Shown here one piece after another: positions 13,301 to 32,525 of a stretch of 64,000 bases of DNA. Source of the DNA: Planctomycetota bacterium (GTDB taxonomy: Bacteria > Planctomycetota > J058); assembly GCA_019636275.1 (NCBI GenBank), contig JAHBXY010000034.1, positions 4,002 through 68,001 of the forward strand, read 5' to 3'. A program made the translations under genes and the position numbers. Every line of letters starts with the position of its first letter. Positions within the stretch are counted from its first letter, which is position 1. Under the pieces are notes generated by a model that was given only the letters and a program-made list of their open reading frames with translations, was not told where the DNA came from and ran no database searches.

Positions 13301-16300
13301 TGACCCGGCACGCCCAGCTCCTCTTCTCCACGCAGGTGACCGACGAGCACTCGCTGGTGGAGCAGGTGAGCCTCCTCCGGGACGGCATGGTCGCGCAGAC
13401 GTCGACCAGCCCGGGGAAGACGGTCACGCGCCAGTTCACGGAGATCGTCCCGGACGGGCGCTACACCTACTCGTTCCGCGCCGTCGACTCGGCGGGCAAC
13501 GTTGCGCACTCGGCGTCGCAGGAGGTCGTCGTGGACCGCGCGGCGCCCATGATCACCGACGTGAGCGCCGTGAAGTCGGCTGACGACGCGTTCACGATCA
13601 CCTTCACGGTCACCGAGGTCGGGCCCGCGGGCCTCGCCGGGTACGAGATCGAGCGGTTCCGGTTCGGGGTCCCCGCGGGGACGGTCGCGGCCGACGCTCT
13701 CTCGGGGTTCGGTCCAGTGACGATCACGCTGACCGACGCCGACCGTCCCGACGGCGATTACAGCTACCGGATCAGGGCCATCGACCAGGCCCAGAACGAG
13801 CAGGTGGTCACGGTCGAGGCCGGGAAGGTCGACCAGAGCCCCCCGGCGATCCATGTCGGCGACCTGAGCGGCGGCGTGTTCGGGCCCGGAGTGCGCACGG
13901 GGACGTGCGTCGTCGAGGACAACTTCGATCCGGAGCACCTCTCCGTCTTCCTCGACGGGGCCGCGCCGACGCTCACGATCACGCGTGAGCAGGTCGCCGT
14001 CGACCTGGTGCGCACGACGATCTCGTTCTCGATCCTGAAGCTCGTCGAGGGCCAGCACGACCTTCAGGTCTCGGCCACCGATCCGGGCGGCAACACCACG
14101 ACGGTGAACGGCACGTTCACGGTCGACCTGACCGCCCCTGAGGTGACCCAGGTCGAGCCCGCCAGCGGACTCTCGTCCACGCCGACGATCGAGTTCTCCG
14201 CCGACCACGAGGACATCCTCAGCGAGATCGTCCCCGACTCGACCACGCTGGTCCTGGCCTCGGACCCGATCGACCTCACCGCGATCGCCCTCCGCACGCC
14301 GACGCGGACCTCGGCGACCGTCACCGGCGTCCCGGACGGACAGCACACGTTCATCCTGCGCCTCACTGACCGCGCGGGCAACGTGACCGAGCACCGCCAC
14401 CCCGTGCTCGTCGACACGCGGGCGCCGCAGGTCACGGTCACCCAGGCCCCCGCCCCTGCGCCGGCCTGGACGCGAGACCCGCGGGCGCCCCTGCGGGCGA
14501 CGTTCCACGACGACGGCGGCAGCGGTGTGGCCGAGGTCCGCCTGCTCCTCGACGGCGTCGACGTGACCGACGAGGCCAGCGTCAGCGCCACGAGCCTGAC
14601 CTTCGCGCCCGACACGCTGACGAACGCGGCCCACGAGTACCGCCTCGAGGTCCGCGACCGCGCGGGCCACGTCACGACCGTGAGCCTGCCGTTCCAGGTC
14701 GACGCCGCGCCGCCGTCGGCCCCCGGCCGGCCGCTCGCCGGGGCGCGGCCGCTCGCCGCGACGACCATCGTGCGCTGGCTCCCGAGCGTCGACGCGGGGC
14801 CCTCGGGGGTCGCGCTCTACCGCCTCTTCCGGTCGGAGGACGGCGGGGAGACCTTCCAGCTCGCGGCGACCACCGCCGCCACCGAGGCCACGGTCGCCTT
14901 CCCCACGGGCGAGAAGACCGTGTTCCGGCTCGTGGCCGTCGACGCCGCGGGCAACGTGAGCGCGGCCGTCGACGCGAAGGGGTGCGAGGTCGTCGCCCTC
15001 CACGAGCTGACGACCGCCGTCAGCACCGTCCTCCAGGTGCGAGTGCAGCGGTCCGACGGCTCGCCGATCGCCGACGCGCTCGTGACCGAGACGGGTGGCA
15101 CGGGCGTCGTCCTCGCTCATCTCGGGGACGGCCTCTACCGGTCGGGCGCCTTGACCGTGCCCTCGGGTCAGCCGCTCTACCTCCAGATCAGCGCCGACGG
15201 CACGGCCTTCGTCTCGGGGCCCCTCCTGCCGCTCCTCCCCGAGACGACGGAGACCGATTTCGGCCTCGTGGTGCTCGCTCGCCATCGCCTGGCCCAGCAC
15301 GTCTTCGCCGCGGGCGGCCAGTCGGGCGGCCAGGTCGGGTTCACCCTGGGCGAGGCCGGCGCCTTCGGACCACCGCCTGCGACGTCGGGCGGCTTCGAGC
15401 TCGCCGGCGGCTTCTGGCACGGCGTCGACGTCGAGGGCGAGGTGGTCGTCCACGTCCTCCAGACGCCGCCCGTGCTCTGCGCGCCCTACCTGCCGCTGAC
15501 CTTCGAGGTCGTGGCCGACGGCGGGGCGTTCGACGTGACGGTCGAGTACTCCACCGACGCGGGCGCGACCTTCGCCCCGGCCACGATCGTCGCCGGCGCC
15601 ACCCAGGCGCTGGCGGGCACGCCCGTCGGCCGCCGTTACATGGCGATCTGGCACGCCGACGCGGACCTGGGCGACCTGTCGCTGGCGGACGTCGTCGTGC
15701 GCGTGTCGCCGGTCGGCCGCCCCGAGCGCGGCGGCCGGATCGGCACGACCCTCATCCGCTCGTTCAAGGTCCTGGCCGTGGAGCCGCGGGCGGGCACCCG
15801 CGACCTCGACCCGCAGGGCGAGCTCGCGCTGACCTTCTCGCGGCCGGTCACGAACGACCCCGCGAACCTCGCGGCCTCGATCGTCCTCGAGGACGCCGTC
15901 GCGGGGACGAGCGAGCCGGTCGACCTGTTCGCTTCGGGGACCCCGCTCGGGGTGGCGGTCCGCGTCGTGCCCCGGAGCGCCCTGGCGCCGGATCGGGAGT
16001 ACCGCCTGCGCGTGCTCCCGGGCCTCCGGCCCGCCACCGGGCAGTTCGTGTTCGACCAGCACGAGCTCGTCCTCGGCCTGTCGGCCTTCGAGGCGGCCTA
16101 CCGCACGGGCGGCCTGGACGCGCGCGCGCCGCGCCTCCTCTCGTCGGTGCCCGCCCACGGGGCCGGCGGCGTGCCCACCGGGCAGACGGTGTTCCTGTTC
16201 TTCGACGAAGAGCTGGATCCGGCCAGCGTCACGGACCAGTCGGTCGTCGTCACGACCGCCATGGGCGTCGTGCCGGCGCCCGTGAGCCTCCTGGCGGACG

Positions 16301-19300
16301 GCCGGACGGTGGCGGTCAGTCCGTCCCTCCAGCCCGGCCGCTGCTACACCGTCTCGGTCGGGCGAGGGGTGCGCGACCTGGCAGGCAACGCCCTGGCCGA
16401 CTTCGGCCACGTGACGTTCTCGACCCTCACGAGCCAGCTCACGCCGCCCGCGCCCACGATCACGTCTCCCGCGAATGGCGCGACCCTGAGCGACCCGCGG
16501 CCGCTGATCACCGGGCACGCCGCTCCGCGCTACGAGGTGCACCTGTTCGTCAACGGCTTCCCCACCGGCCTCCGCACCGTGGCCCGCGACGACGGCACCT
16601 TCGAGATCGCGCCCTTCGCCCTGCCGGACGGCGATCTGACGCTCTTCGCCGTCACGGCCTGGCCGGGGGGCAGCCCGGCGTCGGTGCCAGGCGCGCCCGT
16701 GTCGTTCCGGATCGAGACCGAGCGCCTCCCGGCCTCGTCGCCGCCCGCGCCGGGCGCCACCGACGTGCACGAGGTCCTCGCGGGCGCGCTCGAGGAGCCG
16801 GCGCACCGCTACGAGCTCCGCTTCTCGGGCGACCCCGGGGCGCCGTTCGTGCTCGACGTGGAGACGCTCCGGCGCTCGCAGGGCCTCTTCGCGCCGATCG
16901 AGCTGCGCGTCGCGCCCGAGAACGGCGGCGGCACCTTCAGCGTGGCCGCCGGCCGCCAGACCCTCGGCGCGGGCAGCAACACGTTCGACGCCTCTGGCCA
17001 GGCGCGGGTGACCTACCGCGCCAACGACGTCGTCAAGGACGGCGCGCGGCTGCGCCTGGTCAACCCGCTCGACCAGACGGCGACCGAGCCACAGGAGGTC
17101 GTGCAGCGCTCACCGATCGCCTTCGTCGGCGTAGGGGCTTCTCCCCCCTTCGCGGGGCCGATCCGGGCCAGCGTGGCGCTGCGCGCCCGGCTCCTGAGGT
17201 CGCCCGAGACGGCCATCCTGGCAGGATCCGGGTACCCCGTGCGCGTGCGCGCGGTGGACGAGAACGGCGAGCCGACCGACGCCGTGGCGATCGACGGGCA
17301 GCCGGGCTCGACGGGGGCGACGGCCGTCACGGACGAGAACGGAAACGTGATCGTCACGTTCGTGCACCAGGACGGCGAGGCGCCGTTCGCCCTGGTCGTC
17401 GAGTCGGGCGCCAGCTTCGACTGCCCGCCGTTCGACAGACTTCAGCCCACGCGACTGGGCGAGTCGGGGATCTTCGTCCCGACGGGCGGGGAGTCGGGCC
17501 CCGGCGGCGTGTTCCTTGCCACCCGCAACGACCCGGTCAACAACCTGAGCGACGGACAGTGCGACGCGCTCGCCATGAGCAGGCCCTGTCCTCCTGAGCC
17601 ACCCGCCGGCGCGACGGCGCCGAAGAAGAGGACCCAACCGATCAACGTCGACCACGGAGGCAAGCTCCAGACCCGCGTCGACCTCGTCCTGCCCGGGCGG
17701 GGCGTCCACTTCGCGTGGACCCGGTCCTACAAGGGCTACGGCCTCTATGCGGGCCCGCTCGGTCACCGCTGGACGCACGGCTTCGACCAGCGCCTCCTCC
17801 GCCAGCCCTCGGGCGACGTGCTGTGGGTCACGGGCACCGCCCGCACCGAGACCTTCCGCAGCGTGGGCGGAGGGCGGTTCGCGACGCCGCGCGGCTTCGA
17901 CGTCGTCCTCTCGGTGGACGCCCAGGGCGTGGGTACGCTCCGCGACCCTTCGGGCGGGAAGGCGGTCTTCCGCGCCTTCGGTGCAGTGAACGCGCCGGGC
18001 GCCCTGGCCGAGGTCCGCGACGCGCACGGCAACCGCCTCGCGCTCGAGTACGGTGTCACGGGCGCCGTCGCCGGCCGACTGATCGCCGTCGTCGACCCGC
18101 TGGGCCGGCGGGTCGACCTGGGCTACGACCTGCTCGGTCGGATCGTGACGGTCACCGACCACCTCGGCCGCCAGGTGCGCTACCGCTACAGCAGACTCGG
18201 CGACCTGATCGCCGCGACGTCGCCCGAGGTGCTCGCCACGACCGAGGGCGAGCTCCTCCCGGCCGCCGATCAGTTCCCGGAGGGCCGGACCGAGGTCTAC
18301 GCCTACACGAGCGGCTTCGCCGACGAGCGGCTGAACCATCAGATGCTCCTCCGCGTCGCCCCCGTCGAGGCGGCGAAGCTCCCGCCCGGGCGGCTCGAGG
18401 ACCTGAGCCTGCTGCGTCCGCTGGCGTGCGTCGAGAACACCTACGACCTCGACCCGGACTCGCCCTCGTACGGGAGCGTGATCAAGCAGCGCTGGGGCGG
18501 CGAGAGCGTGCTGCCCGCCTGGACGGGCGAGACGGCGCCGCTCGCCGCGGGCGGCACCTCGACCTTCCGCTACGAGGACCTGCCGCTGCCGCCCAACGCA
18601 TCGCTGAACCACCCGGCCCGCAAGACGACGATCGTCGACCGGGCGGGGAACCTGGTGGAGCTGTTCCACAACCGCGCCGGGCAGTGCGTGCGGGTGCGCC
18701 AGTACACGAACCGCAACGTCCGCCCGGGCGAGCCCGAGTTCTACGAGGCCACGAAGGTCTACAACCACGCCGGGCTCCTGATCGCCCACACCCTGCCGAC
18801 CGGGAGCACCACGCGCTGGATCCACGCCGACGAGGACCTGAACGGGGACGGCGCGCTCACGCCCGGCGAGGACCGAAACGGCGACGGCGACTTCGACGAC
18901 CCCGAGGACGTGCAGCCCGAGGACGACCCGCGCTACGCCTACCGGCCGGGCAACGGCGTCCTCGACCGGCGCGCGCCCTGGCAGCGGCTGCAGCTCCTCA
19001 GGGTCGTGCAGGAGCCCGACGCCCGCGGCGACACGCGCGGTGGCGTGCGGCCGCGGATCCGGACCTTCGAGTACGACCCGGTGTTCGGGCGGCTGATCCG
19101 CCACACCGACCCGCGCGGCCACGACTCCGACTACACGCCCCAGAACGGCGGGCCGTGGTCGCCCGAGCGCTACACGAGCCACGTGCGCCTCGACTACCAG
19201 CAAGGCGAGCCGACCGCCACGCGCGCGGCGCTGGCCGCCGAGCTGGGCACGAGTGAGGCCGACCTCCAGGCGCTCCTGGACGAGGCCGGCGTCGTGCTGG

Positions 19301-22300
19301 GGCTCGGGGACCTCAATGCCTCGCCGGCCGACGACGGCCACCGCTTCGGCGACCCCGTGCGCGCCGAGGCGCCCTCGGTGCGCGTCGCGACCGGGCAGAC
19401 GCTCATGCAGGCGGTCTACGGCCCCGCGCAGGCGGTCGTGACGCTGCTCGAGACGAGCCCCCTGGGCCAGCCCCTGCGCGCGGTCGACCCCGAGGGGAAC
19501 GTCACGCTGTTCCACTACCACCCCGAGGCCGATCCCGACGGCGACGGCGTTCCGGAGCCGGGGGTCACGTCGACGGTGACGACCGGCGGCTGGCTGGCCG
19601 AGGTGATCGTCGACGCCGTCTCGGCCCCGGGCCGCAACGCCGGCACGAACCCGCCGCCCGTGGCCGCGCGCACGCGCCTCTTCTACGACCGCGCGGGCAA
19701 CCCGACGCGGGTGATCGACCCGCGCGGGGTCGAGCACCGCACGACCTACAACGTGCTCAACGAGCCGGTCTCCTCGCGGGTGGCCACCGCGATCGTCGGC
19801 TCGTCCGGGGGCCCGGTCACCGAGCCGGGCCTGGCGCCGCTGGGCTACGAGGCGCGGGTCACCTACGACGCCAACGGCCGCCCGGTCGAGGTGCGCGTGA
19901 GCAACGCCGGTGAGCGCGACGGCTCGGTGACGCAGGTGGCGACGAACCCCTGGTGGACGCGCAAGGTCGCCTACGACCTCCTCGACGGCGCCGTCCTCAC
20001 GCTGGCCGAGGTCGAGCCGATCGCCGACGACGCGTCGATCACGGTGAGCTCGCCGGGGGTCGTCGTGAGCCGGGTCGTCTACGAGCCCAACCGCGACGTG
20101 CGCCTGGTGGTCAAGCCGGAGGGGAACGTCGTCCACTACGTCCACGACGAGCGGAGCCGGCTGGCCTACGTCACCGACGGCCTGGGGACGCCCGAGCAGG
20201 CGACGACGACGCTGCTCGTCGACGTGAACGGCAACCTCGAGCGGATCGTGAGCCCGGTCAAGCGGAACCCGACCAAGGCGCCCGGCTACGCGGGCGACGT
20301 CACCCTGCTCCGCTACAACGGCTTCGACGAGCAGATCTGCACGCACGACCCGGAGGGGAACTGCGGCGACGCGGTCATGGATCCGCTGGGCCAGAAGGTG
20401 CGCTTCGTGCGGCACGGACCGAACGAGGAGAACCTGCCGCGCCTGCTCGAGGTGGAGTACCACTACGACGAGCTAGGCCGGCTCTTCCGGACGGACGCGC
20501 GGGTGTTCGAGGACCTGACGCAGCGCTTCGAGAAGCACGGCGCGGCCTTCCGCACGATCCCCACGATCGACCACGCGCCGCCGGCCGGGGAGGAGGAGGC
20601 GGTCACGCTCGTCGAGCTCGACGCGCTCGGGCGGGCCCTGCGCGGGGTCGACCCGAAGGGCGACGAGAGCCTGGCGGTGTGGGACGGCGCCGGCCGGCTC
20701 CTGCGGGCGCTGGGGCCCATGTTCAGCTCGGTCGCGGGCGCGGGCGCCGTGCGTAACGAGGTGCGCTTCGCCTACAACCAGGCGGGCCAGCCGGTCTCGG
20801 TCACGACGTTCGACCGCTCGCCGCTCGGGCTCGAGCAGACCTTCACGTCGACGGCGGCCTACGACGCCGTGGGCCGGCTGTTCCAGGCCACCGACCCGGC
20901 GGGGCACACCGGCCGGCTGGTGTACGACTCGCGCGGCAACGTGATCGGGGCCTCGGACGCCAACTCCCTGGCCACGGTGCCCAACCTGCCAGGCCTCTGG
21001 CCGCCGACGGTGAACGGCCACGGCAACGTCGCCCGGACCTTCTACGACGGCCTCTCGCGCCCGGTGGCCAGCGAGGTCTTGCTGAAGAAGGGCGGCGTGG
21101 GCGACGGCAGCCTCGACGACACGAACCTCGACACGGGCAACGCGAGCAACCCCGACGGCAAGATCACGATCACCCAGCGCTGGGATCGCAACTCGCGTCT
21201 CGTCTCGCGCAGCGACGACAACGGTAGCACCACCGGCTGGGCCCACGACGCCCGCGACCGCGTCGTCTACACCCTCGGCGCCGACCTGAGCGTCCAGCGC
21301 ACGCTCTACGACCCCGACTCGCTCGTGCGGCAGACGATCGACCGCAACGGGACGGTGATCGACAGGTCGTACGACGCGGCCGGGCGGTTGTTGAAGGTCG
21401 AGGCCACGCGGCGGGCCACGAACCTCGAGGGCACCGGTCAGGCGGTCGAGGGGACGGCCGTGCAGGCGTTCGAGTACGACGGCCTGCACCGCGTGCGCCT
21501 GGCGGTCGACCAGAACGACCCGCTCGACCCGACGGACGACGTGGCGACGTCGTTCACGTACGACTCGCTGGGGCGGCAGCTCACGGAGCGGCACCGCTTC
21601 CGGGCGCAGACGAGCCTCGTGAGCACGTTCGCCACGCAGGGCCGGATCACCGTCGGCGCGGCGGGGATCGACCGGACGATCACGCGGACGTTCGACCTCG
21701 ACTCGAACCGCACGTCGACCACCTACTCGAGCGGCCGGACGCTCACCTACCAACTGGACGGCCTTGACCGCCTCCAGGCGATCCGCGACTCCGTCGGCAC
21801 GATCACGGCCATGGAGTTCGTGGGCGGGCGGCCGCTGGCGAGCACCACGGGCCGCGGGACGGTGAGCACGTCCTACTCGTACGACGCGAAGCGGCGGCTG
21901 ACGGGCCTGGACCACGTCGGGAGCGCAGGGAGGATGGCCGGCTTCGGCTACGCGTGGGACCGCGCCGACCGCCGCGCGAGCGAGACGCACCTGCCGGCGG
22001 TGGGCGTGGCGGCGCGGACGGAGACCTACACGTACGACTCGGCGTCCAGGATCACGCGCGTGGCCTTCGGCGACGCGCGGCCGGACACGTCGTGGGTGAT
22101 CGACGGCGTGGGCAACTGGGTCAGCCGCACCGAGGGCGGCCAGACGCAGACCACGAACCAGCGCCAGAACGGGAGGTACGCCCCGGACCTCATGAACGAG
22201 GTCCAGCGCCTGGCGACGTTCAACGCGCTGGGCTCGCTCGTGAAGGACGAGCAGCACACCCAGGACCCGAACGGAAACCGGATCAAGAGCGGCGAGTGGC

Positions 22301-23769
22301 GGCTGTCGTTCGACGTGTTCGACCGGCTCGTGCGCGTGGAGCGGACGAGCGACGGGCAGACGGTCGGCAGGTACCGGTACGACGCGCTTGGCCGGCGCGT
22401 CGACCGGTGGTTCGTGGCTCGCGGGGAAGCGGTCGGGCAGCAGGCGTTCCACGTCAACGACGGCGCGCAGGAGGTCGAGGAGGTCGACGGGGCGGGCAAC
22501 GTCGTCGCCGACTACGTGTGGGGCGGGCTCTACCTGGACCAGGTCGTCCAGATGCGGCGGGGGGGGCAGGAGTACCACCTGCACGCCAACTCGATCTGGT
22601 CGGTGGTCGCGGCGACCGACGCGAGCGGGGCGGTGGTGGAGCGGTACTCGTACGCGTCGATCTACGGCGTGTGCGAGGTGCGCGACGCCGCGGGTGCGCC
22701 GCGGGCGAGGAGCGAGGAGATCGGGAACCCGTGGAGGTTCCAGGGGAGGAGGTTCGACCCGGAGACGGGCTTCTACTACTTCAGGCTGAGGTACCTGGAC
22801 CCGGAGGGAGGGAGGTTCGTCAGCAGGGATCCGCTGGGGATCTGGGGAGACGCGGGGCAGTTCGGGAATGCCTACTCGTTCTGCGGGAACGATCCGGTCA
22901 ATCGGGTGGATCCGTGGGGGTTGGAGGGGGAGGACCGTGGGCCGGATCGGCCATGGTGGGTCTACATTCCAATAATTGGTCCATGGTGGGAGTTCCAGGA
23001 AACAAGGAGGGCTGCTCAGGAGTCGGAGGCTCGCCAGGACGAATGCGATCGGGAGTATCTGACTACGGCGCAGCAGGTAAGGCTCGGAGCACGTCGGGTC
23101 ACTCTCTACACGGCCACCGCTGGGTCCGCGATTGTGGCCGGAGAGGCGGGGGCGGTCGTTGCCTACTTTTCGGCACCAATCATCAGCCAATTCGCCACTC
23201 GGCTACTGAGCAGCCTTGGGCTACGCGGGGCGTTCAGTCTTGCGCAGAATCTCGCGTACCGCGCGTACGTTTGGGCTGCAACGCGCCTAATGGGGATTCA
23301 GTTGCGCTTCCTCGGCATCGGCGCAGCCGGAGCCGGAGGCGCCGCGCAGAGAATGGGAACCAGCGTAGTTCAGACGGGCGAGCGAAGCGTCCGACTGGAG
23401 ATCGAAGGACAGGTCGTTGGCACCATGAGGGTCGTTGCGGACAGGGTTACAGGCGCAATGAACACCATGAAGGGAGGACTTGACATTCGTGGTGTGGCGC
23501 CTCAAGGGCAAGGCTACGGGAAGGAACTCCTCATCAAGTCGTTCGACGCCCTCCGCGCACTCGGCTATCGGGTGACCAGATTCAGGACGGATTGGACACC
23601 AGGGCTGGACACGAATCTCAAGGCATTCCAAAGGGCCATTGCGAGTGGGATGTCTCCCCAGCGAGCCGCGTTCGAGACGCCCACCGGCAAAGCGATGCTT
23701 GACCTGGGATTCACAAACGTCGAGATCATCAAGAACACCGCAGGGCAGGTCATCCTGGAGTTCTTCTAA
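10396..23769 (+). CDS. giant secreted RHS/YD-repeat polymorphic toxin (Ig-like stalk, RHS shell, variable C-terminal toxin tip with GNAT-like fold)
   Basis: About 4458 aa with a signal peptide. Roughly 2400 aa of repeated Ig-like or carboxypeptidase-regulatory-like modules come first. The RHS shell starts near 17640 (WTRSYKGYGLYAGPLGHRWTHGFDQRLL) and contains many YD repeats (YDSRGNV, YDAAGRL, YRYDALGRRVDR). The RHS core ends at PWRFQGRRFDPETGFYYFRLRYLDPEGGRFVSRDPLGIWGD...DPVNRVDPWGL (22909-22923). A 282-aa low-GC tip follows, with hydrophobic segments and then VRLEIEGQVVG...LDIRGVAPQGQGYGKELL (GNAT motif A-like). Confidence 0.9.
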   Translation: MTSREKRARRATLLTLAAAAGAAGLVVTSRAQEPPPSEAVVTLAFDAVADTYVAKDAQNRPHGSEAALAVEQAPRRRALVRFDLAAVGAWLAPDRLESAELELTIAGEVSLPPAGKQATLPIGAHRLTAAWSEAAATWTRPAAGQSWSMDKAPLPFADAPTTTLSLARGQRGVVRLDVTRDVAAFLAGETPGEARDHGWVLRCLDESGPGAVRFTSREAGAGPRLVVRLRDVTPPSLVIDTPVEDAWTGPADQVRVTFTDPRTGIAAGSFAARVGGVDVTGHFEVGPGGATAPLAALAAALAQGPNQLACEVRDVAGNLASAEVGYRFDSVGPAAALTPPPGAVVTTDTISVRVTYEDLGAGVDLATVAASLDGEPLALEVGAAEATAVVTLGHGEHTLTAEVRDLVGNPTVASSTFRVVLFGALEGVVGGARAEDARMITPLPGVRVRALTPEAPEVVTDHQGNFTLPGVRAGQPVVLVADGATQGFGRAYMTVEAVADRSVPVDRSVILHELPAEQTPLALDADGRTTQQLVLTNPDVPGLSLTIDAGSRVVLPDDLTPGVTPALSITRLAWAATPNPLASDLYASWWVMAHPVGAQVVEGFGLTLPNDLGLPPGTEVTFQQFDHRTGALFPKTTLRVSADGSRLEGRFNSDLLNGAAAVAGGPPMTVSFNVDLTASGSVSTLFAQLNGASAGLYPTATPGVYVFTGTQPTNPTGGTPSTPIITLTRTPTFPTTIQPVPTTPPPGTTTNTIGSVPLICEVWPQAIGPGQTLHVRVAGAPHFHALVAHVGNQSAPLSHLATQGDVYLFRSPADAPLPEGSYVLEWQQGSPFRDDKLWFSGAPPANRLALDRTAPAISTLSFPEGVTTQPQATLQLVTGDAVAGIRSVELQAFSGSTFETVAGPFLFGEAGSFGPTSVNLSQSLPLTTGTNRVRAVVVDTAGISQVRETTVVLDTVPPVFLATSFPPTVTRHAQLLFSTQVTDEHSLVEQVSLLRDGMVAQTSTSPGKTVTRQFTEIVPDGRYTYSFRAVDSAGNVAHSASQEVVVDRAAPMITDVSAVKSADDAFTITFTVTEVGPAGLAGYEIERFRFGVPAGTVAADALSGFGPVTITLTDADRPDGDYSYRIRAIDQAQNEQVVTVEAGKVDQSPPAIHVGDLSGGVFGPGVRTGTCVVEDNFDPEHLSVFLDGAAPTLTITREQVAVDLVRTTISFSILKLVEGQHDLQVSATDPGGNTTTVNGTFTVDLTAPEVTQVEPASGLSSTPTIEFSADHEDILSEIVPDSTTLVLASDPIDLTAIALRTPTRTSATVTGVPDGQHTFILRLTDRAGNVTEHRHPVLVDTRAPQVTVTQAPAPAPAWTRDPRAPLRATFHDDGGSGVAEVRLLLDGVDVTDEASVSATSLTFAPDTLTNAAHEYRLEVRDRAGHVTTVSLPFQVDAAPPSAPGRPLAGARPLAATTIVRWLPSVDAGPSGVALYRLFRSEDGGETFQLAATTAATEATVAFPTGEKTVFRLVAVDAAGNVSAAVDAKGCEVVALHELTTAVSTVLQVRVQRSDGSPIADALVTETGGTGVVLAHLGDGLYRSGALTVPSGQPLYLQISADGTAFVSGPLLPLLPETTETDFGLVVLARHRLAQHVFAAGGQSGGQVGFTLGEAGAFGPPPATSGGFELAGGFWHGVDVEGEVVVHVLQTPPVLCAPYLPLTFEVVADGGAFDVTVEYSTDAGATFAPATIVAGATQALAGTPVGRRYMAIWHADADLGDLSLADVVVRVSPVGRPERGGRIGTTLIRSFKVLAVEPRAGTRDLDPQGELALTFSRPVTNDPANLAASIVLEDAVAGTSEPVDLFASGTPLGVAVRVVPRSALAPDREYRLRVLPGLRPATGQFVFDQHELVLGLSAFEAAYRTGGLDARAPRLLSSVPAHGAGGVPTGQTVFLFFDEELDPASVTDQSVVVTTAMGVVPAPVSLLADGRTVAVSPSLQPGRCYTVSVGRGVRDLAGNALADFGHVTFSTLTSQLTPPAPTITSPANGATLSDPRPLITGHAAPRYEVHLFVNGFPTGLRTVARDDGTFEIAPFALPDGDLTLFAVTAWPGGSPASVPGAPVSFRIETERLPASSPPAPGATDVHEVLAGALEEPAHRYELRFSGDPGAPFVLDVETLRRSQGLFAPIELRVAPENGGGTFSVAAGRQTLGAGSNTFDASGQARVTYRANDVVKDGARLRLVNPLDQTATEPQEVVQRSPIAFVGVGASPPFAGPIRASVALRARLLRSPETAILAGSGYPVRVRAVDENGEPTDAVAIDGQPGSTGATAVTDENGNVIVTFVHQDGEAPFALVVESGASFDCPPFDRLQPTRLGESGIFVPTGGESGPGGVFLATRNDPVNNLSDGQCDALAMSRPCPPEPPAGATAPKKRTQPINVDHGGKLQTRVDLVLPGRGVHFAWTRSYKGYGLYAGPLGHRWTHGFDQRLLRQPSGDVLWVTGTARTETFRSVGGGRFATPRGFDVVLSVDAQGVGTLRDPSGGKAVFRAFGAVNAPGALAEVRDAHGNRLALEYGVTGAVAGRLIAVVDPLGRRVDLGYDLLGRIVTVTDHLGRQVRYRYSRLGDLIAATSPEVLATTEGELLPAADQFPEGRTEVYAYTSGFADERLNHQMLLRVAPVEAAKLPPGRLEDLSLLRPLACVENTYDLDPDSPSYGSVIKQRWGGESVLPAWTGETAPLAAGGTSTFRYEDLPLPPNASLNHPARKTTIVDRAGNLVELFHNRAGQCVRVRQYTNRNVRPGEPEFYEATKVYNHAGLLIAHTLPTGSTTRWIHADEDLNGDGALTPGEDRNGDGDFDDPEDVQPEDDPRYAYRPGNGVLDRRAPWQRLQLLRVVQEPDARGDTRGGVRPRIRTFEYDPVFGRLIRHTDPRGHDSDYTPQNGGPWSPERYTSHVRLDYQQGEPTATRAALAAELGTSEADLQALLDEAGVVLGLGDLNASPADDGHRFGDPVRAEAPSVRVATGQTLMQAVYGPAQAVVTLLETSPLGQPLRAVDPEGNVTLFHYHPEADPDGDGVPEPGVTSTVTTGGWLAEVIVDAVSAPGRNAGTNPPPVAARTRLFYDRAGNPTRVIDPRGVEHRTTYNVLNEPVSSRVATAIVGSSGGPVTEPGLAPLGYEARVTYDANGRPVEVRVSNAGERDGSVTQVATNPWWTRKVAYDLLDGAVLTLAEVEPIADDASITVSSPGVVVSRVVYEPNRDVRLVVKPEGNVVHYVHDERSRLAYVTDGLGTPEQATTTLLVDVNGNLERIVSPVKRNPTKAPGYAGDVTLLRYNGFDEQICTHDPEGNCGDAVMDPLGQKVRFVRHGPNEENLPRLLEVEYHYDELGRLFRTDARVFEDLTQRFEKHGAAFRTIPTIDHAPPAGEEEAVTLVELDALGRALRGVDPKGDESLAVWDGAGRLLRALGPMFSSVAGAGAVRNEVRFAYNQAGQPVSVTTFDRSPLGLEQTFTSTAAYDAVGRLFQATDPAGHTGRLVYDSRGNVIGASDANSLATVPNLPGLWPPTVNGHGNVARTFYDGLSRPVASEVLLKKGGVGDGSLDDTNLDTGNASNPDGKITITQRWDRNSRLVSRSDDNGSTTGWAHDARDRVVYTLGADLSVQRTLYDPDSLVRQTIDRNGTVIDRSYDAAGRLLKVEATRRATNLEGTGQAVEGTAVQAFEYDGLHRVRLAVDQNDPLDPTDDVATSFTYDSLGRQLTERHRFRAQTSLVSTFATQGRITVGAAGIDRTITRTFDLDSNRTSTTYSSGRTLTYQLDGLDRLQAIRDSVGTITAMEFVGGRPLASTTGRGTVSTSYSYDAKRRLTGLDHVGSAGRMAGFGYAWDRADRRASETHLPAVGVAARTETYTYDSASRITRVAFGDARPDTSWVIDGVGNWVSRTEGGQTQTTNQRQNGRYAPDLMNEVQRLATFNALGSLVKDEQHTQDPNGNRIKSGEWRLSFDVFDRLVRVERTSDGQTVGRYRYDALGRRVDRWFVARGEAVGQQAFHVNDGAQEVEEVDGAGNVVADYVWGGLYLDQVVQMRRGGQEYHLHANSIWSVVAATDASGAVVERYSYASIYGVCEVRDAAGAPRARSEEIGNPWRFQGRRFDPETGFYYFRLRYLDPEGGRFVSRDPLGIWGDAGQFGNAYSFCGNDPVNRVDPWGLEGEDRGPDRPWWVYIPIIGPWWEFQETRRAAQESEARQDECDREYLTTAQQVRLGARRVTLYTATAGSAIVAGEAGAVVAYFSAPIISQFATRLLSSLGLRGAFSLAQNLAYRAYVWAATRLMGIQLRFLGIGAAGAGGAAQRMGTSVVQTGERSVRLEIEGQVVGTMRVVADRVTGAMNTMKGGLDIRGVAPQGQGYGKELLIKSFDALRALGYRVTRFRTDWTPGLDTNLKAFQRAIASGMSPQRAAFETPTGKAMLDLGFTNVEIIKNTAGQVILEFF
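20758..22923 (+). repeat. 2.17-kb direct repeat (RHS core), copy 1; partner at 38602-40767
   Basis: Near-identical DNA and protein between the main RHS and the orphan cassette, running from EVRF(A/T)YNQAGQPV to DPWGL. Confidence 0.9.
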
Positions 23770-24397
23770 TGCCCTCGAGAGCCCAGTGACCAACCGTATG
23801 GCGCAGCATGGCCAGGGAGCGCTCTCCAAGGACGCGTCCGCCGTATGTAATCGCCCACAAGAGATCATCTCCTTGGTCGTCCATGTCTCGGTTGACCGAC
23901 GCGCGAGCGAACGCTCGAACTGCAAGTGCGCAGAAACACAACCGCTGGGCACCCGCCTGGTCCGCAATCTGACTAAGCGAACTGAGGTCGTCGTCCTGAC
24001 TAACTACACGCTGCCGGTGGTCATCGCATTGACATGCTTGCCAGCGACGAACTGACTCAACGAACGGTGAGAGAGTGCGCCCACCCGCGAACGAGTGGTC
24101 AGCGACGAGCCACTCTCTCGCGACAGCCACGGCGACCGCTTCTGACGCGCGAATCGCTCCGTCACGCCACCGCGAGATCAAGGCAGAAGCCCACGCTCCC
24201 AAGGTTTCTGCCTCCCCGGGTTGAACATCACCGACAGCCCTCCTCGCCCCCTCATGCCCGCAGTACGCCGCCAACTCCAGCCGCTCCCGCGTGAGGTCCC
24301 CCACGCGCACGCGCTCCAGCAGGTAGGCGGCCTCGTCCTCGACGGCGCCCGTCTCCCGCCAGCGGCGTTCGAGTTCGCGTAGCTTGGCGTCGCTCAT
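23750..24397 (-). CDS. candidate cognate immunity protein (convergent to toxin tip); conserved N-terminus, variable C-terminus
   Basis: 215 aa. The ATG has the RBS GGGGAGAG. It overlaps the toxin stop by 20 nt. The first ~55 aa (MSDAKLRELERRWRETG...AAYCGHEGARR) are shared with the paralogue at 41716-42312, and the sequences then diverge. Local GC drops to about 56-60%. Confidence 0.5.
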   Translation of the reverse strand: MSDAKLRELERRWRETGAVEDEAAYLLERVRVGDLTRERLELAAYCGHEGARRAVGDVQPGEAETLGAWASALISRWRDGAIRASEAVAVAVAREWLVADHSFAGGRTLSPFVESVRRWQACQCDDHRQRVVSQDDDLSSLSQIADQAGAQRLCFCALAVRAFARASVNRDMDDQGDDLLWAITYGGRVLGERSLAMLRHTVGHWALEGIRRTPG

Positions 24398-24676
24398 GAC
24401 GGCTGACTCTCCCCCGGAACCCCGAGCATGACCGTCCCCGCCGACATGCGCCGCGTCCTCCGCGCCCTCGCCGGCAAGCCCTGCTGGCACGTCTCGGCCG
24501 GCCCCGGAGTCGGCTCGACGTTCCAACTCGCCCTGGGTGCCAAGGTGCCACGGGCGAGGCCGCTCGCCAACCCTGCGCAGCCGCCGGCCTACCGGAAGTT
24601 CGAGGGCGAGTGCGCGCTCATGGTCTGGTGCGCCTGGCGACTCGACGGACCGCAGGGACCGGTGGTCAGCAGCGAC
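24232..24676. repeat. 445-bp direct repeat, copy 1 (divergent promoter block plus the 5' ends of two genes); partner 42147-42591
   Basis: Near-identical sequence at both sites. It encodes the N-termini of the minus-strand immunity-like genes and of the plus-strand MTVPADMRRVLRALAGK... genes. Confidence 0.85.
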
Positions 24677-25697: not shown

Positions 25698-25782
25698 GTT
25701 TCGAACTCCGTCACCCGCTCAGACTCGACAGATAATCCGCGCAAGACGCGCATGCAAGGCTCGATGTGGGCTGTCGAGGCCT

Positions 25783-25840
25783 GACACGCCACAAGTCATC
25801 TGCGGCAGATGATTTGTCAAATCTGCGGCGCCCGAAGATT
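25783..25840. promoter_or_regulatory. palindromic operator-like site in divergent promoter region (tcatctgcggcagatga; second half-site atctgcggcg)
   Basis: A 17-bp near-perfect palindrome lies between the divergent HTH gene (25697, minus) and the 25874 plus gene. Confidence 0.4.
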
Positions 25841-25873
25841 CCTCGCGACTACGATCAGTCGGGAGGACTCGCC

Positions 25874-26416: not shown

Positions 26417-26417
26417 C

Positions 26418-28226
26418 ATGGCTAAACGCGACGACATCCGGGTGCGACTGCTCGAACTCCTCGCAACAGGGCCTGCGAGCCTGCGACCGCTCTTCGCCGA
26501 GTTCCCGCGCTGGGAGGTCTATGCCGCGCTCAAGGAGCTCAGGGAGGAGATGCTGGTCATGCCGGGGCCGACGAAGGGCACCTGGCAGCTCACGCAGGCC
26601 GGGGTTCAGGCCGCCGAGGGCGCGCCGGTGCCGCCGGCGAGGTCCCCGATGAACTGGCCCACGCTGCCGGGCGTGCCGCACCTGGACGTGCTGCCCTCGC
26701 GCGAGCATCAGGCGCTCGGGCGACTGGTCCTGCTGGCCGCCACAGCCCGCCGGCACTACGAGCACCACCACGCGAGCTTCGTCTTGTTCAGCAGGTCGGG
26801 TCTGCGGGGCAAGACCTGGCTTGGGCGCTGGGCGTCGCTGGTCCTCGGTGGCGGCGACGTGGTGCACGCCGTCGCCGAGGGCGGGCGGTCGCTGGCCGCG
26901 CGGCGCCGAGGTGACGGCCAGGTCGCGGCGGTGCGGGCGGCGCTGGGCAGGCCGATGCTGATGATCGACGAGTGGCGGCGTGGGTCGACTGAGGTGCGGC
27001 GGTTGACGACCGTGCTCATCCACGGCGACAGGTTCGTCCCGTTCGAGGACGCGCAGATCCAGGTCGCCGCGGTCATCCTGCTCGCGATGAACTCCCCCGC
27101 CGGCGCCGAGAGCGTCGAGGAGGCGACCGGCCTCGACGCCCCGATGATCCGCAGGTGCTTGGTCACCTTCCTGGAGCGTGTGGTCCTGGATGCGGCGTTC
27201 GCCCGCGATGGCGAGGAGCGCCTGGATCGTGTCCGCGAACTCGGGCCTGTCGCGCTGCCTGACGTCAGGCCCGGCGCTGTGGACGAGCGCAGCCTCCGCG
27301 ACCGGATCGCCGACGCGCTGGAGGTCGTCTTGGACAGCCGCGAGCGCATGGGGTCGCTCGACCTGGTGCTGCTCGGTCAGCTCGCGGTGGCGGCCTGCGC
27401 GTGGGGCCTGTCGGTCGAGGAGGCGGTCGCCATGGTCGTGCACTCGTGCTGCGTGCTGTGGGCGACCACGGGGTGGACGGCGGCGGCCTGGGAGGAGCGG
27501 CTCGCCGAGGTGGTCGGACGAGACGAGGATGCTCACGAGGTCGAGGAGGCCGATGTCGTCATGGAGGATGACATCAAGTGCGACCACGCCTGGGAGGACC
27601 GGGTCGCCGAGCTCGACCGGGTCGCCCGGGCGCATGGCGCTGGCGACCCGACGGTGCTCGATTATCTGCTCCGGCTGGCGGCGGCAGTGCGCGGCGTGGG
27701 CCTGGGCGCCAAGGACCTCGCGGGAATCAGGGAGATGCTCACGATCGTGCGCGGGCGCGACGTCGACGCCGAGGGACGGCTGCGGGTCCTGGCCGCCATG
27801 GACGAGTGTGAGATCTCGCCCGAGGAGGCGAGGCGCGTGCTCGAGGTCGTGGCCGCCGGGAGGGAGGCGTTCGGCCTGGGCGCCGAGGACGTGATGCAGA
27901 TGCTGCGCGGTATCGGAGAGGCGGGACTGGACCCGGGCGAGGTCGGCGCCTGGGCGGCGTGGTCGATGGCGGAGCTCGGCAGGCTGGATGGCGAGGTCGA
28001 GCTGGCGCGTTCGGAGCTGCGGCGCTGGCGGCGTGATGTGGGGGAGGCGGCGGACCATCTCGCAACCCTCAACGCGAGGATCACCAAGCTCGCCGAGCTC
28101 ATCGGACGCGCGAGGAGCGAGCCGGGGCTGGCACGGCTGGTCGTCATGGCGGACTCGGAGCGAGGGCGCCAAGTCATTGCGCAGGTCATGCGGGCAGCGG
28201 AGGAGATTAGCGCGGCGACATCGTGA
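26418..28226 (+). CDS. hypothetical 602-aa protein with N-terminal winged-helix-like region
   Basis: RBS CAGGAGG. The N-terminus IRVRLLELLATGPASL...EVYAALKELREEMLV is wHTH-like. Confidence 0.5.
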   Translation: MAKRDDIRVRLLELLATGPASLRPLFAEFPRWEVYAALKELREEMLVMPGPTKGTWQLTQAGVQAAEGAPVPPARSPMNWPTLPGVPHLDVLPSREHQALGRLVLLAATARRHYEHHHASFVLFSRSGLRGKTWLGRWASLVLGGGDVVHAVAEGGRSLAARRRGDGQVAAVRAALGRPMLMIDEWRRGSTEVRRLTTVLIHGDRFVPFEDAQIQVAAVILLAMNSPAGAESVEEATGLDAPMIRRCLVTFLERVVLDAAFARDGEERLDRVRELGPVALPDVRPGAVDERSLRDRIADALEVVLDSRERMGSLDLVLLGQLAVAACAWGLSVEEAVAMVVHSCCVLWATTGWTAAAWEERLAEVVGRDEDAHEVEEADVVMEDDIKCDHAWEDRVAELDRVARAHGAGDPTVLDYLLRLAAAVRGVGLGAKDLAGIREMLTIVRGRDVDAEGRLRVLAAMDECEISPEEARRVLEVVAAGREAFGLGAEDVMQMLRGIGEAGLDPGEVGAWAAWSMAELGRLDGEVELARSELRRWRRDVGEAADHLATLNARITKLAELIGRARSEPGLARLVVMADSERGRQVIAQVMRAAEEISAATS

Positions 28227-28262
28227 TCAGCCGCCGCCCGGGGTGCCACGCCGCCGCTCCGC

Positions 28263-31200
28263 ATGTCAGTGAGCCGGAGTAGCGTCCGCCGCATGACCAT
28301 CTTCGACCTGTGGAACTGCAAGATCTACGAGGCCGTCGAGTCCATGCTCGACGAGGACGAGGACCTGCACGACGCCGTCGTCGACCCCGTCCTCGACCTC
28401 GCCCGCGCGATCGACGACGCCCTCTACGAGTGGCGTGTCACGCGGGCCGAGGGCCGTCACGCCGACGAGGTGCGCGCGGCCGCCCTGGCCGTCAGCGAGG
28501 CGGTGCTCGCGCTCGACCGCGGGCTGCCGACCTCGGTGTCGATCGGCGACGACGACGACGACGACGCCTACACGGACCTGGACCTGAGCGACATCTCGCG
28601 CGAGGTCGCCAGGCTGGTGATCGACGAGGGCGTCCCCGTGCTCTGCGTCGTCCGCGAGATCCACGACGGGCCGCGGCTCGTGCTGTCGCTCGCTGAGCAC
28701 GAGGCGCTGGACGCCCTGGCGACGGAGTATCGCGAGTACATGAGCGCGCTCCAGCGCGCGCGCGAGCAGTTCGCGCGCGCGCGCGTGCCGGAGAAGCTCA
28801 TGTCCGCCGACGAGGCTCGTGTCCGGATCGCGATCGCGCTGGCCGCGCCCGACCGCACGATCGCGCCCGGCGAGGTCCTCGCCATCGCGGTCACGCCAGG
28901 CGCCGGCAAGTCGTCCGGCGCGCAGGCCGCGGCCCGTACGCAGCCGGCTCTGCCCCTGGCCTATGTCGCACGCGACCATCGCCTGACGCGGCAGGTCTGC
29001 GCCGACCTGCTGGCGCCCTCCGCGCTGCCCGCACGCCGCACCACCAGGCGCATGGGGATCCTCTCGCCGCGCGGCGATCAGGACGACACGCCCCTCTGCC
29101 TGCGGCCAGAGGAGGCGAAGGCGATCCTCGAGGCGGGCGGCTCGCCCGCTCGGCTCCTGTGCGCGACCTGTCGACACGCGCCGCCGCACGGCGGCGCGTG
29201 CAAGGCGTACGGCGGCAGCGAGGGCAGCGCGCCGGACGCCCTCGTGACCGTGCCGCACCTGTCGCCGGTCGTCGACGCCTGGTGCGTCGACCAGGACCTG
29301 CCCCCCATGGTGATCATCGACGAGCCGCCGCCGGTCACCGACACCGTCGTCGTCTCGTCGCAGCAGGTGGAGCGGGCGATCGTCGTCCTGCGCGCTGCGC
29401 GCGCGGGCCTGACGGCCCCGCGCGCGCTGCCCAAGCGTCGGCACGATCGCCGTGGGCCGCGCAAGCTCGCGGACGGCAGGTACCGCCTCGGCGGGCCCGC
29501 CGTGGAGCCAGCGGTGGCGATCGCCGTCCTGCCGGCGCTCGAGCTCGTGCGGCGCCTGCTCGCGAGCGGGCGCGCGACCGAGGTCCCCTACGGCGTCGAC
29601 CCCGCGACCATCGTGCTCGACCCCGCTCCGCCGCCGATCCCGCACACCGCCACCGCGGTCGCAGACGCCGCGCGCGACCTCCTGCGCGCGAGCGTCGACC
29701 ACGCGTGGGGGCAGCGCCGGGGCGTGGTGACGACCTGGGTCGACGACCTGCGCGACCTCGGGCTGCCGGTCGGCGCGCCGCCCGCCACGGCCGACTGGGA
29801 GAGGCTGGACCCCACGCCCTGGATCGACGCGGCCAGCGGCGGCCTGTCGGTGCTCGCGCCCGTGACCTCGCTGGGCGACGACCGCGCCACGGTCGGCGTC
29901 GAGGAGGCCCTCTCGGAGCCCGCGCGGAGCACGCTCGCTGCGGCCGCGGAGGACGCGCCCCGCGCGCTCGACGCCCTGCGCGCGCTCTCGACCGGCCGCA
30001 CCCTCGCGCGCTGGCTCGCGCCCCAGCGCGAGCGCGGGCTGCCGCAGGGAGTCGCGCGCGTCGTCGATCGCACGATCGTGGTCACCGCGCCGAGCGTGCG
30101 CGCCGCCGAGCTGCTCGGCGCGCGAGGCCACCTCGCCGTGCTCGACGCGACCCCCGACCGCGCTGGTCTCGCGGCCGCCGCGCGCTGGGTGGGGCGGCAG
30201 CCGGTCTGGCTCGACCTCGACGTCGACGACGGCGCGGACGTGCGCCGGGAGATGATCTACGCCTCGGCTTCGGCGAAGCGCATCCTGCTCGCGGGGGGCG
30301 AGGTCCAGTGGGACGCCCTCGGCAGCCTGCTGGTCCATGCGCTCGAGCGAATCGGAGGTGACGCCGTCAGGACGGTCCTCGTCGTCACCCACAAGGCCGT
30401 CGCGGACGCCCTGCGGCCGATCCTGCACCTCGAGCGCCCTCACCTCCGCAAGGTCGGGCACGAGGGCGCTGCCGACGCGCTCCGCGGATGGTACGAGGGG
30501 CTGCCGGGTCGCCAGATCATCCTCGCCCACTACCACGCGATCCGAGGGCAAAACGCCTTTAGGTGGCGCAAGGACGAGATCCCATGGATCGCTCTCGACG
30601 CGTGCGTCACGATTGGGGACCCGTACCCGACGCTCGACCATGCGCGTGACGCAGGCATCCTGCTCGGCCTCGACGCCCCCATGGATCGCGTGCGCCAGCT
30701 CGCCGCCGACGAGCTCGCGCAGGCGCACGGTCGCCTGCGCGCGCCCGTGCGACCACGGCCAGGGCTGTCCGTACATCTCGGCCAGGTCGTACCGACCGGC
30801 TGGCATCCCGGCAACGCGGCGCTCATCGAGCTCGAGCGCGGGCGACCGCCGGATCCGGCGGACATGTCCCGCGAGGAGCTGCTCGCGCTCATCGCCGCCC
30901 ACGGGTCGGCAGGTGCGCTCGCGCGCGCCGCGATGGTGGCGCCATCGACGATCAGTCGGTACCTGTCTGGCAAGCGGATCCTGACGGCCTCGACGGCAGA
31001 GCGCCTGCGGGCTGCGCCGCTGCCGCCAGGAGTGACGCCGCCGGTCGTTGCCGCCGACGTCGTCGCCGCAGGCGCGCCGTCGGAGATCGATGCGCCGGCG
31101 ACCGACGCTGACGAGCCGCCGCCGCCCGCGCCGACTGCGCCGCCACCGATCATCCTGCCGCAGGTCGTCCGACTCGCGCCGCCCAGACCCCTGCCGGTGG

Positions 31201-31466
31201 ACGACGACGAGGCGCGGGCCCTGCTCTGCGCGCGCGTCGAGGAGGTCGAGGGCGTCCTCGCCGCGCGCCTCGCCGCCCTCGAGGTGGCGCTGGCCGACGT
31301 CACTGACGAGCGCCAGCGCGTCGCGGCCACCCGCCGCTGGCTCGAGGCCACGCCCGTGACGCCGGCCTGGCCGGCGTCGGACGCCGAGCGCGCCGCCCGG
31401 CTCCTGGGCGGCGTGCCGGCCGCCATAACCCGCCTCGCGGCGGAGCAGTGGTGGGTCGGACGCTAA
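28263..31466 (+). CDS. large P-loop NTPase (Walker A AVTPGAGKSS, Walker B VIIDEPP) with acidic N-terminal region and C-terminal XRE-like HTH
   Basis: 1067 aa. An alternative start is at 28293 (MTIFDLW). The C-terminus STISRYLSGKRILTASTAERL is HTH-like. Confidence 0.55.
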   Translation: MSVSRSSVRRMTIFDLWNCKIYEAVESMLDEDEDLHDAVVDPVLDLARAIDDALYEWRVTRAEGRHADEVRAAALAVSEAVLALDRGLPTSVSIGDDDDDDAYTDLDLSDISREVARLVIDEGVPVLCVVREIHDGPRLVLSLAEHEALDALATEYREYMSALQRAREQFARARVPEKLMSADEARVRIAIALAAPDRTIAPGEVLAIAVTPGAGKSSGAQAAARTQPALPLAYVARDHRLTRQVCADLLAPSALPARRTTRRMGILSPRGDQDDTPLCLRPEEAKAILEAGGSPARLLCATCRHAPPHGGACKAYGGSEGSAPDALVTVPHLSPVVDAWCVDQDLPPMVIIDEPPPVTDTVVVSSQQVERAIVVLRAARAGLTAPRALPKRRHDRRGPRKLADGRYRLGGPAVEPAVAIAVLPALELVRRLLASGRATEVPYGVDPATIVLDPAPPPIPHTATAVADAARDLLRASVDHAWGQRRGVVTTWVDDLRDLGLPVGAPPATADWERLDPTPWIDAASGGLSVLAPVTSLGDDRATVGVEEALSEPARSTLAAAAEDAPRALDALRALSTGRTLARWLAPQRERGLPQGVARVVDRTIVVTAPSVRAAELLGARGHLAVLDATPDRAGLAAAARWVGRQPVWLDLDVDDGADVRREMIYASASAKRILLAGGEVQWDALGSLLVHALERIGGDAVRTVLVVTHKAVADALRPILHLERPHLRKVGHEGAADALRGWYEGLPGRQIILAHYHAIRGQNAFRWRKDEIPWIALDACVTIGDPYPTLDHARDAGILLGLDAPMDRVRQLAADELAQAHGRLRAPVRPRPGLSVHLGQVVPTGWHPGNAALIELERGRPPDPADMSREELLALIAAHGSAGALARAAMVAPSTISRYLSGKRILTASTAERLRAAPLPPGVTPPVVAADVVAAGAPSEIDAPATDADEPPPPAPTAPPPIILPQVVRLAPPRPLPVDDDEARALLCARVEEVEGVLAARLAALEVALADVTDERQRVAATRRWLEATPVTPAWPASDAERAARLLGGVPAAITRLAAEQWWVGR

Positions 31467-32470: not shown

Positions 32471-32525
32471 GCCAAGTTGCCCGCCCTGACGAATCACCCG
32501 CTACGGTCACGTCAGGAGGTCAGCC

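Follow-up and report, generated by a model that had tools for sequence, protein, structure and literature searches.

The window analysed here is a 64,000-nucleotide (nt) stretch of a Planctomycetota metagenome-assembled genome (MAG), positions 4,002 to 68,001 of the forward strand of contig JAHBXY010000034.1 (GCA_019636275.1). It encodes a giant Rhs protein whose C-terminal tip belongs to a new toxin-domain family, and the Rhs gene is met tail-to-tail by a convergent gene that probably specifies the matching immunity protein. The Rhs gene (10396..23769, + strand) codes for 4,457 amino acids (aa) from its annotated ATG and matches exactly MBX3467745.1, labelled by NCBI as 'Ig-like domain-containing protein'. 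In the list of open reading frames (ORFs) the frame is open from the first GTG at 10270 and specifies 4,499 aa (10270..23769, +). Pfam places along the chain the bacterial Ig-like domains Big_13, Big_5 and Big_3, a DUF6531 domain and many RHS repeats, with RHS_repeat (PF05593) matched at E = 1.4e-28 and 2.9e-36. This bears out the Ig-stalked RHS protein of ~4,450 aa reported in a preliminary description made from the DNA letters alone. The N-terminus resembles a signal peptide and the protein looks Sec-exported. The end of the Rhs core (22780..22923, +) displays the DPxGL motifs ...RDPLGIWGD...DPVNRVDPWGL and is presumably where autoproteolysis frees the tip. The NCBIfam model of the Rhs-associated core, TIGR03696, scores 72.2 bits against a cut-off of 32.5 and stops exactly at ...DPVNRVDPWGL, at position 22923 (residue 708 of the translated stretch 20800-22923). 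Cleavage at DPWGL is presumed here from the known behaviour of Rhs and TcC proteins. The protein is a genuine Rhs polymorphic toxin: tests for the repeats, the core, a variable tip and its replacement were all positive. No gene for a type VI secretion system (T6SS), PAAR or VgrG was found among the neighbouring genes scanned.

The toxin tip directly follows the Rhs core and extends from 22924 to 23766 (+ strand), comprising 281 codons plus a stop and not the 282 residues first counted. GC content falls from 0.71–0.76 before the tip to 0.63 and then 0.60 within it, while third-codon-position GC drops from 0.94–0.99 in the core to 0.66–0.72 in the tip. This composition shift is real and strong and marks the tip as foreign to its surroundings. 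Thus, given the core end, the 281-codon extension and the drop in GC, the earlier observation of a lower-GC extension after a canonical core end is correct. The tip holds a Gly/Ala-rich hydrophobic to amphipathic pre-toxin region (23101..23352, +; tip residues ~60–143), for which two hydrophobic segments had been described. The first, Gly/Ala-rich segment (tip residues ~60–96) reaches a Kyte-Doolittle peak of 1.67 over 19 residues around residue 78, a borderline membrane span. The second (tip residues ~103–143) peaks at 1.0 around residue 125 and is amphipathic rather than membrane-like. Similar hydrophobic linkers lie upstream of the domain in the relatives P0007, P0009 and P0012 and at loci L002, L003, L004 and L008, and we infer a role of this region in membrane insertion or translocation. 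The C-terminal toxin domain, which most likely adopts a minimal GNAT-like fold, spans 23362..23766 (+; tip residues 147–281), its family-wide part covering roughly 23470-23766; residue numbers such as W78 and G51 refer to this 135-aa domain. A Q-G-Q-G-Y-G loop (23503..23520, +) connects a strand with helix α3 and fits GNAT motif A, the pyrophosphate-binding loop. The start of the last helix is occupied by T-P-T-G-K (23677..23691, +), the window's version of the T-x-T-G-[KR] motif found family-wide in alignment A1. Conservation within the family is highest at this motif together with a Trp (23593-23595) and an Asn (23614-23616).

Sequence comparison indicates that the last ~100–130 residues of the tip are a real domain family without a curated model. 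An exhaustive phmmer search with the tip, against 1.84 billion representatives, retrieved 40 representative clusters at E <= 1e-3 (best 2e-15), and all 40 matches fall on tip residues ~183–281. In 36 of the 40 the domain is present as a single copy that ends no more than 27 residues, and usually no more than 5, from the C-terminus of carriers of 56–755 aa. Five family carriers match the Rhs core end of the window; others display, by eye, Rhs-type or Hint-type ends, and one has an HExxH motif. More members follow Rhs-type cores at L002 (a Rickettsiales MAG), L003 (a Geminicoccaceae MAG), L004 (a sister Planctomycetota MAG) and L008 (a metagenome contig). Such a spread over unrelated carriers is the hallmark of a C-terminal domain of polymorphic toxins. 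At L001 and L002 a small co-directional ORF overlaps the toxin gene and lies directly after it; at L003 no obvious immunity gene was found downstream of the toxin. The nearest relative of the window tip is located at L008 (1429-2949, −; also L009), with 41.7% identity over 156 aa, a likeness that takes in part of the Gly/Ala-rich pre-toxin region. The L008 tip follows the Rhs-type core end ...NPVNRVDPLGL and is truncated by the end of the contig, which is probably why it is absent from the protein searches. Other searches were sparing: a profile search of genomes with the closer subgroup alignment identified two genome loci only, and a word-indexed protein search returned nothing with the tip and four proteins only with alignment A1. 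Pfam-A 2025 and NCBIfam 20.0 contain no model covering the family; NCBIfam produced scattered chance matches only on 37 family members, and NCBIfam and PADLOC gave no match on the tip and the neighbouring genes. In A1, W78, A103 and G109 are invariant and N85, G96, A102, T106, T108 and G116 nearly so, giving the consensus ...G-x-G-x-x-M-F...V-x-x-I-x-G-x-W...N-x-x-x-F...S-P-E-x-A-A-F-x-T-x-T-G-K-x-A-x-x-x-G-F.

A few carriers have other architectures. P0001 is 5,274 aa long, P0013 consists of a signal peptide and two domain copies, and P0002 contains three ~230-aa repeats, each then followed by ...FDRPDWG...YANxWxSSMAHAGR.

The tip lies within a variable cassette that is delimited by comparison with the orthologous locus of a related MAG (GCA_026184275.1; L004), in which the Rhs ortholog is P0046. 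The DNA of the two loci is near-identical through 22935 (...PWGLEG-E/D-D), unalignable beyond this point and near-identical again from 24240, so that 22936..24239 is the sole differing stretch between near-identical flanks. The breakpoints therefore fall at 22935/22936 and 24239/24240, the right one inside the convergent gene, and between them they enclose the toxin tip and the final ~160 codons of the convergent gene. Of the two conserved flanks, one is the Rhs core and the other the 5' part of the convergent gene. The L004 tip is 30–32% identical to that of the window and belongs to the same domain family.

The convergent gene (MBX3467746.1; 23750..24397, −), present in both the ORF list and the NCBI annotation, overlaps the Rhs stop by 20 nt and specifies a 215-aa protein. 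Its frame-specific GC fits coding, and its composition becomes foreign toward the 3' end. The protein is divided into a conserved N-terminal module (24240-24397, −), shared with the L004 ortholog, and a variable C-terminal domain (23753-24239, −) inside the cassette. The 195-aa L004 counterpart displays 49% identity over the first 129 residues, being near-identical over the first ~55 and divergent after. Both are members of a family that numbers at least 324 proteins, with lengths of ~200 aa, and every named one comes from a Planctomycetota MAG. The family members share the ~55-aa module MSDxKLRELERRWxETGSxxDEAAYLxERVRVGDLTxERLELAAYCGHEGA and differ greatly in their C-terminal domains. Neither Pfam nor NCBIfam has a model for the module. 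Among 69 members, the C-terminal domain of two matches Imm5_like (best E = 6.9e-9) and that of one matches Imm5 (E = 0.0029); DUF6931 was also matched in this family. Zhang et al. 2012 (PMC3482391) count Imm5 among the immunity families of polymorphic toxin systems. In six of nine sampled loci a gene of the convergent family meets an Rhs-type gene tail-to-tail, and the tips concerned are of four kinds: the window tip with its relatives in L004 and L008/L009, a DUF3990 tip and two unrelated tips (L006 and L007). The window itself holds a second member, P0095 (KF878_12830; 41719..42312, −), which has the same N-terminal module and is convergent to a second Rhs gene. The two paralogs are 82% identical over 60 residues, with nothing detectable after.

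We consider the convergent 215-aa gene to be the probable immunity gene. It is convergent and overlapping, and not a co-directional gene downstream; the preliminary description had spoken of a downstream candidate immunity gene. Two results count against this assignment. The window's 215-aa protein has no Pfam (E <= 1), NCBIfam or PADLOC match, and BLAST detects no similarity between its C-terminal domain and that of the gene neighbouring the L008 tip, and for this latter reason an argument from toxin-immunity co-variation was dropped. Three other candidates or labels were rejected. No co-directional immunity gene was found, the + strand ORFs within 23770-24400 having the appearance of antisense noise. 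A 166-aa gene further on (24428-24928, +), without family match, is of native composition and is conserved unchanged beside both the window tip and the different tip of L004. The label Imm5_like was not retained for the 215-aa protein because its alignment with an Imm5_like member stops at residue ~70 and only the N-terminal module aligns. Besides the Imm5 and Imm5_like C-terminal domains of some members, the convergent family shares with these immunity proteins a mostly helical character, a size of ~200 aa and a place beside toxin genes. In contrast to them, the 215-aa protein matches neither PF21805 nor PF14423 and belongs to a family defined by the ~55-aa N-terminal module. Two loci of the convergent family may be described in addition. 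L005 holds two genes with the N-terminal module in an island that also contains Imm1, Fic, PLD-like and GIY-YIG genes. At L011 (1208-1642, −; also L012) a 145-aa gene, beside an rve integrase gene, is convergent to the N-module gene P0059 and may be an orphan toxin module.

Several lines of evidence relate the toxin domain to the GNAT superfamily. When 31 family members were scanned with Pfam (E <= 1), the five families met most often, Acetyltransf_7, _1, _16, _CG and _3, were all of the GNAT clan and no other family recurred; the best value, E = 3.7e-4, is still weak. A profile of subgroup alignment A2, comprising the 13 members with a motif-A-like loop, recovered 23 matches among solved structures, mostly acetyltransferases, including the tandem GNAT 5kf1 (E = 0.0017) and RimI 5isv (E = 0.0044). 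The A2 alignments shown, those with 5kf1 variants, sit on motif A, from strand β4 to helix α3, and the RimI match covers the same span of the profile. The strand, Q-G-Q-G-Y-G loop and helix proposed earlier as motif A hold up. The pattern Q/R-x-x-G-x-G/A is found at 23503-23520, Pfam and PDB alignments register the loop on motif A, and in the AlphaFold model helix α3 begins at its last Gly (residue 53 of the domain). In A2, G51 is invariant and G53 is conserved in at least 90% of sequences, and many members carry a textbook motif A, such as LQGQGIGSEIF or YQGQGIGTEMF. The pattern is not rare, its chance of occurring within 135 aa being roughly estimated at ~0.1.

Structure prediction, which like profile comparison had been suggested as a check on the fold, adds to this picture. 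For the tip domain, AlphaFold gives a model with a mean pLDDT of 75.6, confident over the last 85 residues and ordered as strand, strand, a weak strand, helix 53–66, strand 74–78, three helices, strand and strand. All of its top 21 Foldseek matches are GNATs. Member P0041, whose N-terminal half is cleaner, was modelled at pLDDT 90.8 and pTM 0.80 as four strands, a helix, a strand, three helices and two strands. Its 50 listed Foldseek matches consist of three chains of ornithine decarboxylase antizyme and otherwise of GNAT-type domains only; behind antizyme come dozens of GNAT chains at E = 2e-3 to 1e-2 and probability 0.92–1.0, among them Rv0998 PAT, SpeG, MccE and the GNAT domain of ICL2.

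A number of results weigh against this assignment. The tip alone scores 13–13.7 bits against PF00583 (cut-off 20.7; E = 0.08–0.13) and 13 bits against PF13508 (cut-off 27; E = 0.12), and a phmmer search of the tip against solved-structure sequences returned a coat protein only, at E = 1.1. Taken alone, the tip sequence fails the thresholds of a GNAT assignment, and neither the tip nor any family member reaches a curated GNAT profile at gathering threshold. Because A2 was picked for motif-A-like sequences, it is biased toward GNAT matches. Against solved structures, the whole-family profile A1 matched RRM domains at E ~0.3 and no GNAT. An hhalign comparison of A1 with a RimI alignment gave a probability of 6.5% over 36 columns on motif A, the RimI template, of five sequences, being too shallow to decide. 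The first 50 residues of the tip-domain model are poor and its Foldseek matches to GNATs are weak (E >= 0.04, TM-score 0.35–0.41), and across the tip-domain and P0041 models TM-scores to GNATs are modest (0.35–0.45). The motif-A Q/R is not conserved family-wide, the nearest relative at L008 reading LDKGYG, and no invariant residue of the family corresponds to a typical GNAT general base or acid. The fold first proposed from the tip is partly supported: the Pfam scan, the A2 profile and the P0041 model favour it at the level of the family and in a minimal version, and the tip by itself remains below threshold. With these points taken into account, we consider it likely that the domain is a minimal GNAT-superfamily fold lacking helices α1–α2. 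The fold would keep strands β2–β7 and helix α3, and a family-specific insert of two helices would bear the W, N and T-x-T-G-K residues, an arrangement that has good support.

Comparison with known GNATs defines the particularities of the domain. Small arm-less GNATs of the Acetyltransf_CG and YjdJ-like type display the same succession of three strands, α3, a strand, helices and two strands, with Q-x-x-G-x-G before α3. In contrast, the toxin domain as modelled lacks α1–α2, has no conserved canonical catalytic Glu or Tyr and contains, between β5 and the last helix, the two extra helices with W, N and T-x-T-G-K. The GNAT toxins of toxin-antitoxin systems (TacT, AtaT, ItaT and KacT) are full-length GNATs of ~160–175 aa that are partnered by RHH/DUF1778 antitoxins and act inside the producer. 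They would resemble the present domain in placing a toxin on a GNAT fold, and the acyl-CoA chemistry proposed below is borrowed from them. In contrast, the window domain measures ~115–130 aa, forms the end of a secreted 4,457-aa Rhs carrier and has another type of neighbour. No RHH/DUF1778-type antitoxin was found, and the genes at 23750-24397 (−) and 24428-24928 (+) have no Pfam or NCBIfam match. None of TacT, AtaT, ItaT and KacT occurs among the PDB sequence matches or the top 50 Foldseek matches. Their absence from these lists indicates that the domain does not belong with the toxin-antitoxin GNAT toxins, and no link appeared to TacT, AtaT and ItaT, which the preliminary description had named as the best-known GNAT toxins.

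Whether the domain acts as an acyl-CoA-dependent transferase is less secure than its fold, and we put this forward as a possibility that falls somewhat short of even odds. The G-x-G before α3 and the T-x-T-G-K before the last helix are placed as expected for gripping the phosphates of CoA. By analogy with known systems, the tip would be freed at DPWGL and delivered into a neighbouring cell, and the hydrophobic pre-toxin helices may aid membrane crossing or entry. Once inside, the domain could use acyl-CoA to acylate an essential cellular amine. Aminoacyl-tRNA is one candidate target by analogy only, and acetylation of aminoacyl-tRNA by this tip, suggested at the outset, is pure analogy. The product of the convergent 215-aa gene would protect the producer cell, and the Rhs core and the conserved 5' part of the convergent gene could act as homology arms for exchange of the cassette. 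To the reading as a whole, an exchangeable Rhs tip with a minimal GNAT-fold warhead and a convergent immunity gene, we assign a probability of roughly 60%. A more far-reaching proposal is doubtful at present: a new warhead class of minimal GNAT acyltransferases, with an active site completed by the W/N/T-x-T-G-K insert and a target other than aminoacyl-tRNA, combined with a lineage-specific immunity family whose N-terminal module serves as a homology arm.

The domain might alternatively be derived from a GNAT and yet be non-catalytic, binding or sequestering a target protein 1:1 in the manner of antizyme or routing it to degradation. The two best Foldseek matches of the P0041 model are antizyme, a non-enzyme (4zgy_B, E = 2.5e-4; 5bwa_B, E = 9.3e-4). 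Antizyme has a GNAT-type fold without the N-terminal helices, and SCOP classifies it under the acyl-CoA N-acyltransferase fold, as a member without enzymatic activity. Its C-terminal domain is similar in size to the toxin domain and is the best structural match of P0041 (TM-score 0.54 on the target's length). The lack of α1–α2, the absence of an invariant acidic or Tyr residue and the variable motif-A Q/R would also suit such a function. In contrast, antizyme is a eukaryotic non-enzymatic regulator, matched at a sequence identity of ~9–10%, and has neither G-x-G nor T-x-T-G-K; the match is a structural resemblance and not family membership. The toxin family, moreover, conserves both of these helix-start loops, which are of a type that typically binds phosphate, and retains a textbook motif A in many members. 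Small arm-less GNATs are still able to bind CoA and, to our knowledge, the known polymorphic toxin tips are overwhelmingly enzymes, and both considerations were counted against a non-catalytic domain, which we regard as improbable.

A similarly low probability is given to an enzyme of different chemistry on a GNAT-like or similar α/β scaffold, with W...N...AA..T-x-T-G-K forming an active site for a nucleotide or phosphorylated substrate and the likeness to motif A being incidental. The most conserved columns of the family do lie in the insert and not in motif A, and the failure of the whole-family profile to find GNATs, the weak hhalign result and the modest TM-scores point the same way. Set against this, GNATs are the sole families that recur in the sequence searches, the structural matches listed for P0041 are GNAT-type throughout except for antizyme, and no kinase, nucleotidyltransferase or ADP-ribosyltransferase appears among the matches. 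The last alternative, that the domain targets eukaryotic cells as an effector, or forms a terminal module without toxicity, and that the convergent gene has nothing to do with immunity, could accommodate the 2–6 internal domain copies of P0001–P0003 and P0013, which are odd for a toxin, as well as the member in a Rickettsiales MAG, the lack of an obvious downstream immunity gene at L003 and the missing immunity-family match of the window's convergent protein, but it is very unlikely in view of a variable cassette that takes in the tip together with the convergent gene's C-terminal domain, the recurrence of the convergent family, with its occasional Imm5 and Imm5_like members, at Rhs 3' ends with differing tips, the small overlapping ORFs downstream at L001 and L002, and the C-terminal position of the domain after Rhs cores (and after Hint-type ends recognised by motif only).

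The reading as an exchangeable Rhs tip also agrees with the general organisation of Rhs/YD-repeat toxins such as WapA, the T6SS Rhs effectors and TcC-type proteins (PMC3482391). Like these, the window protein combines RHS repeats with a TIGR03696 core that closes on DPxGL. Its tip is of foreign composition and is swapped between orthologs, the neighbouring gene varying with it, and its C-terminal domain is reused on other scaffolds. The usual Rhs layout has a co-directional downstream immunity gene, whereas the window's candidate is convergent, overlaps the toxin stop and carries a near-invariant N-terminal module.

The surroundings of the Rhs gene complete the description of the locus. Upstream lie genes for an AMP-binding enzyme, a ceramidase-like protein and an undecaprenyl diphosphate synthase. 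On the other side, the start of the convergent gene and the divergent 166-aa gene are separated by 30 nt (24398-24427); in L004 the corresponding gap (9317-9571) measures ~250 nt and includes a called 62-aa ORF. The stretch 25314-33143, between the two Rhs genes, has the look of a mobile-element segment. It holds an excisionase-like HTH_17 gene on the − strand, a large ORF without family match (26418..28226), a large ORF with a weak HTH_3 match only (28227..31466) and a serine resolvase gene (32490..33143). The second, shorter Rhs gene (38002..41709, +) has a core end 90% identical to that of the first, and its tip (40768-41706) matches DUF3990 at E = 6.6e-10.

This warhead family is new. In the portion of the text of the 2012 catalogue consulted (PMC3482391), the words 'GNAT', 'acetyltransferase' and 'antizyme' do not occur, and a 2026 Rhs paper cites GNAT toxins from toxin-antitoxin systems only. 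No description of a GNAT or acetyltransferase as a polymorphic, Rhs or contact-dependent inhibition (CDI) toxin was found in the literature searched, the coverage of which is incomplete. The view that a GNAT is an unusual cargo for a secreted RHS protein is in keeping with this literature, which names GNAT toxins from toxin-antitoxin systems only.

Many novel enzymatic activities originate in Rhs toxins and their polymorphic relatives, which are a major source of them. Should the domain prove to be a working acyltransferase, acylation would count as a way in which cells kill one another, and a very small GNAT scaffold of ~115 aa with an unusual conserved insert would be added to the superfamily. 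The convergent family provides a testable model of toxin-immunity cassette exchange, in which the breakpoints coincide with sequence conservation, and its MSDxKLRELERRW... module offers a handle for finding Rhs tips in Planctomycetota metagenomes.

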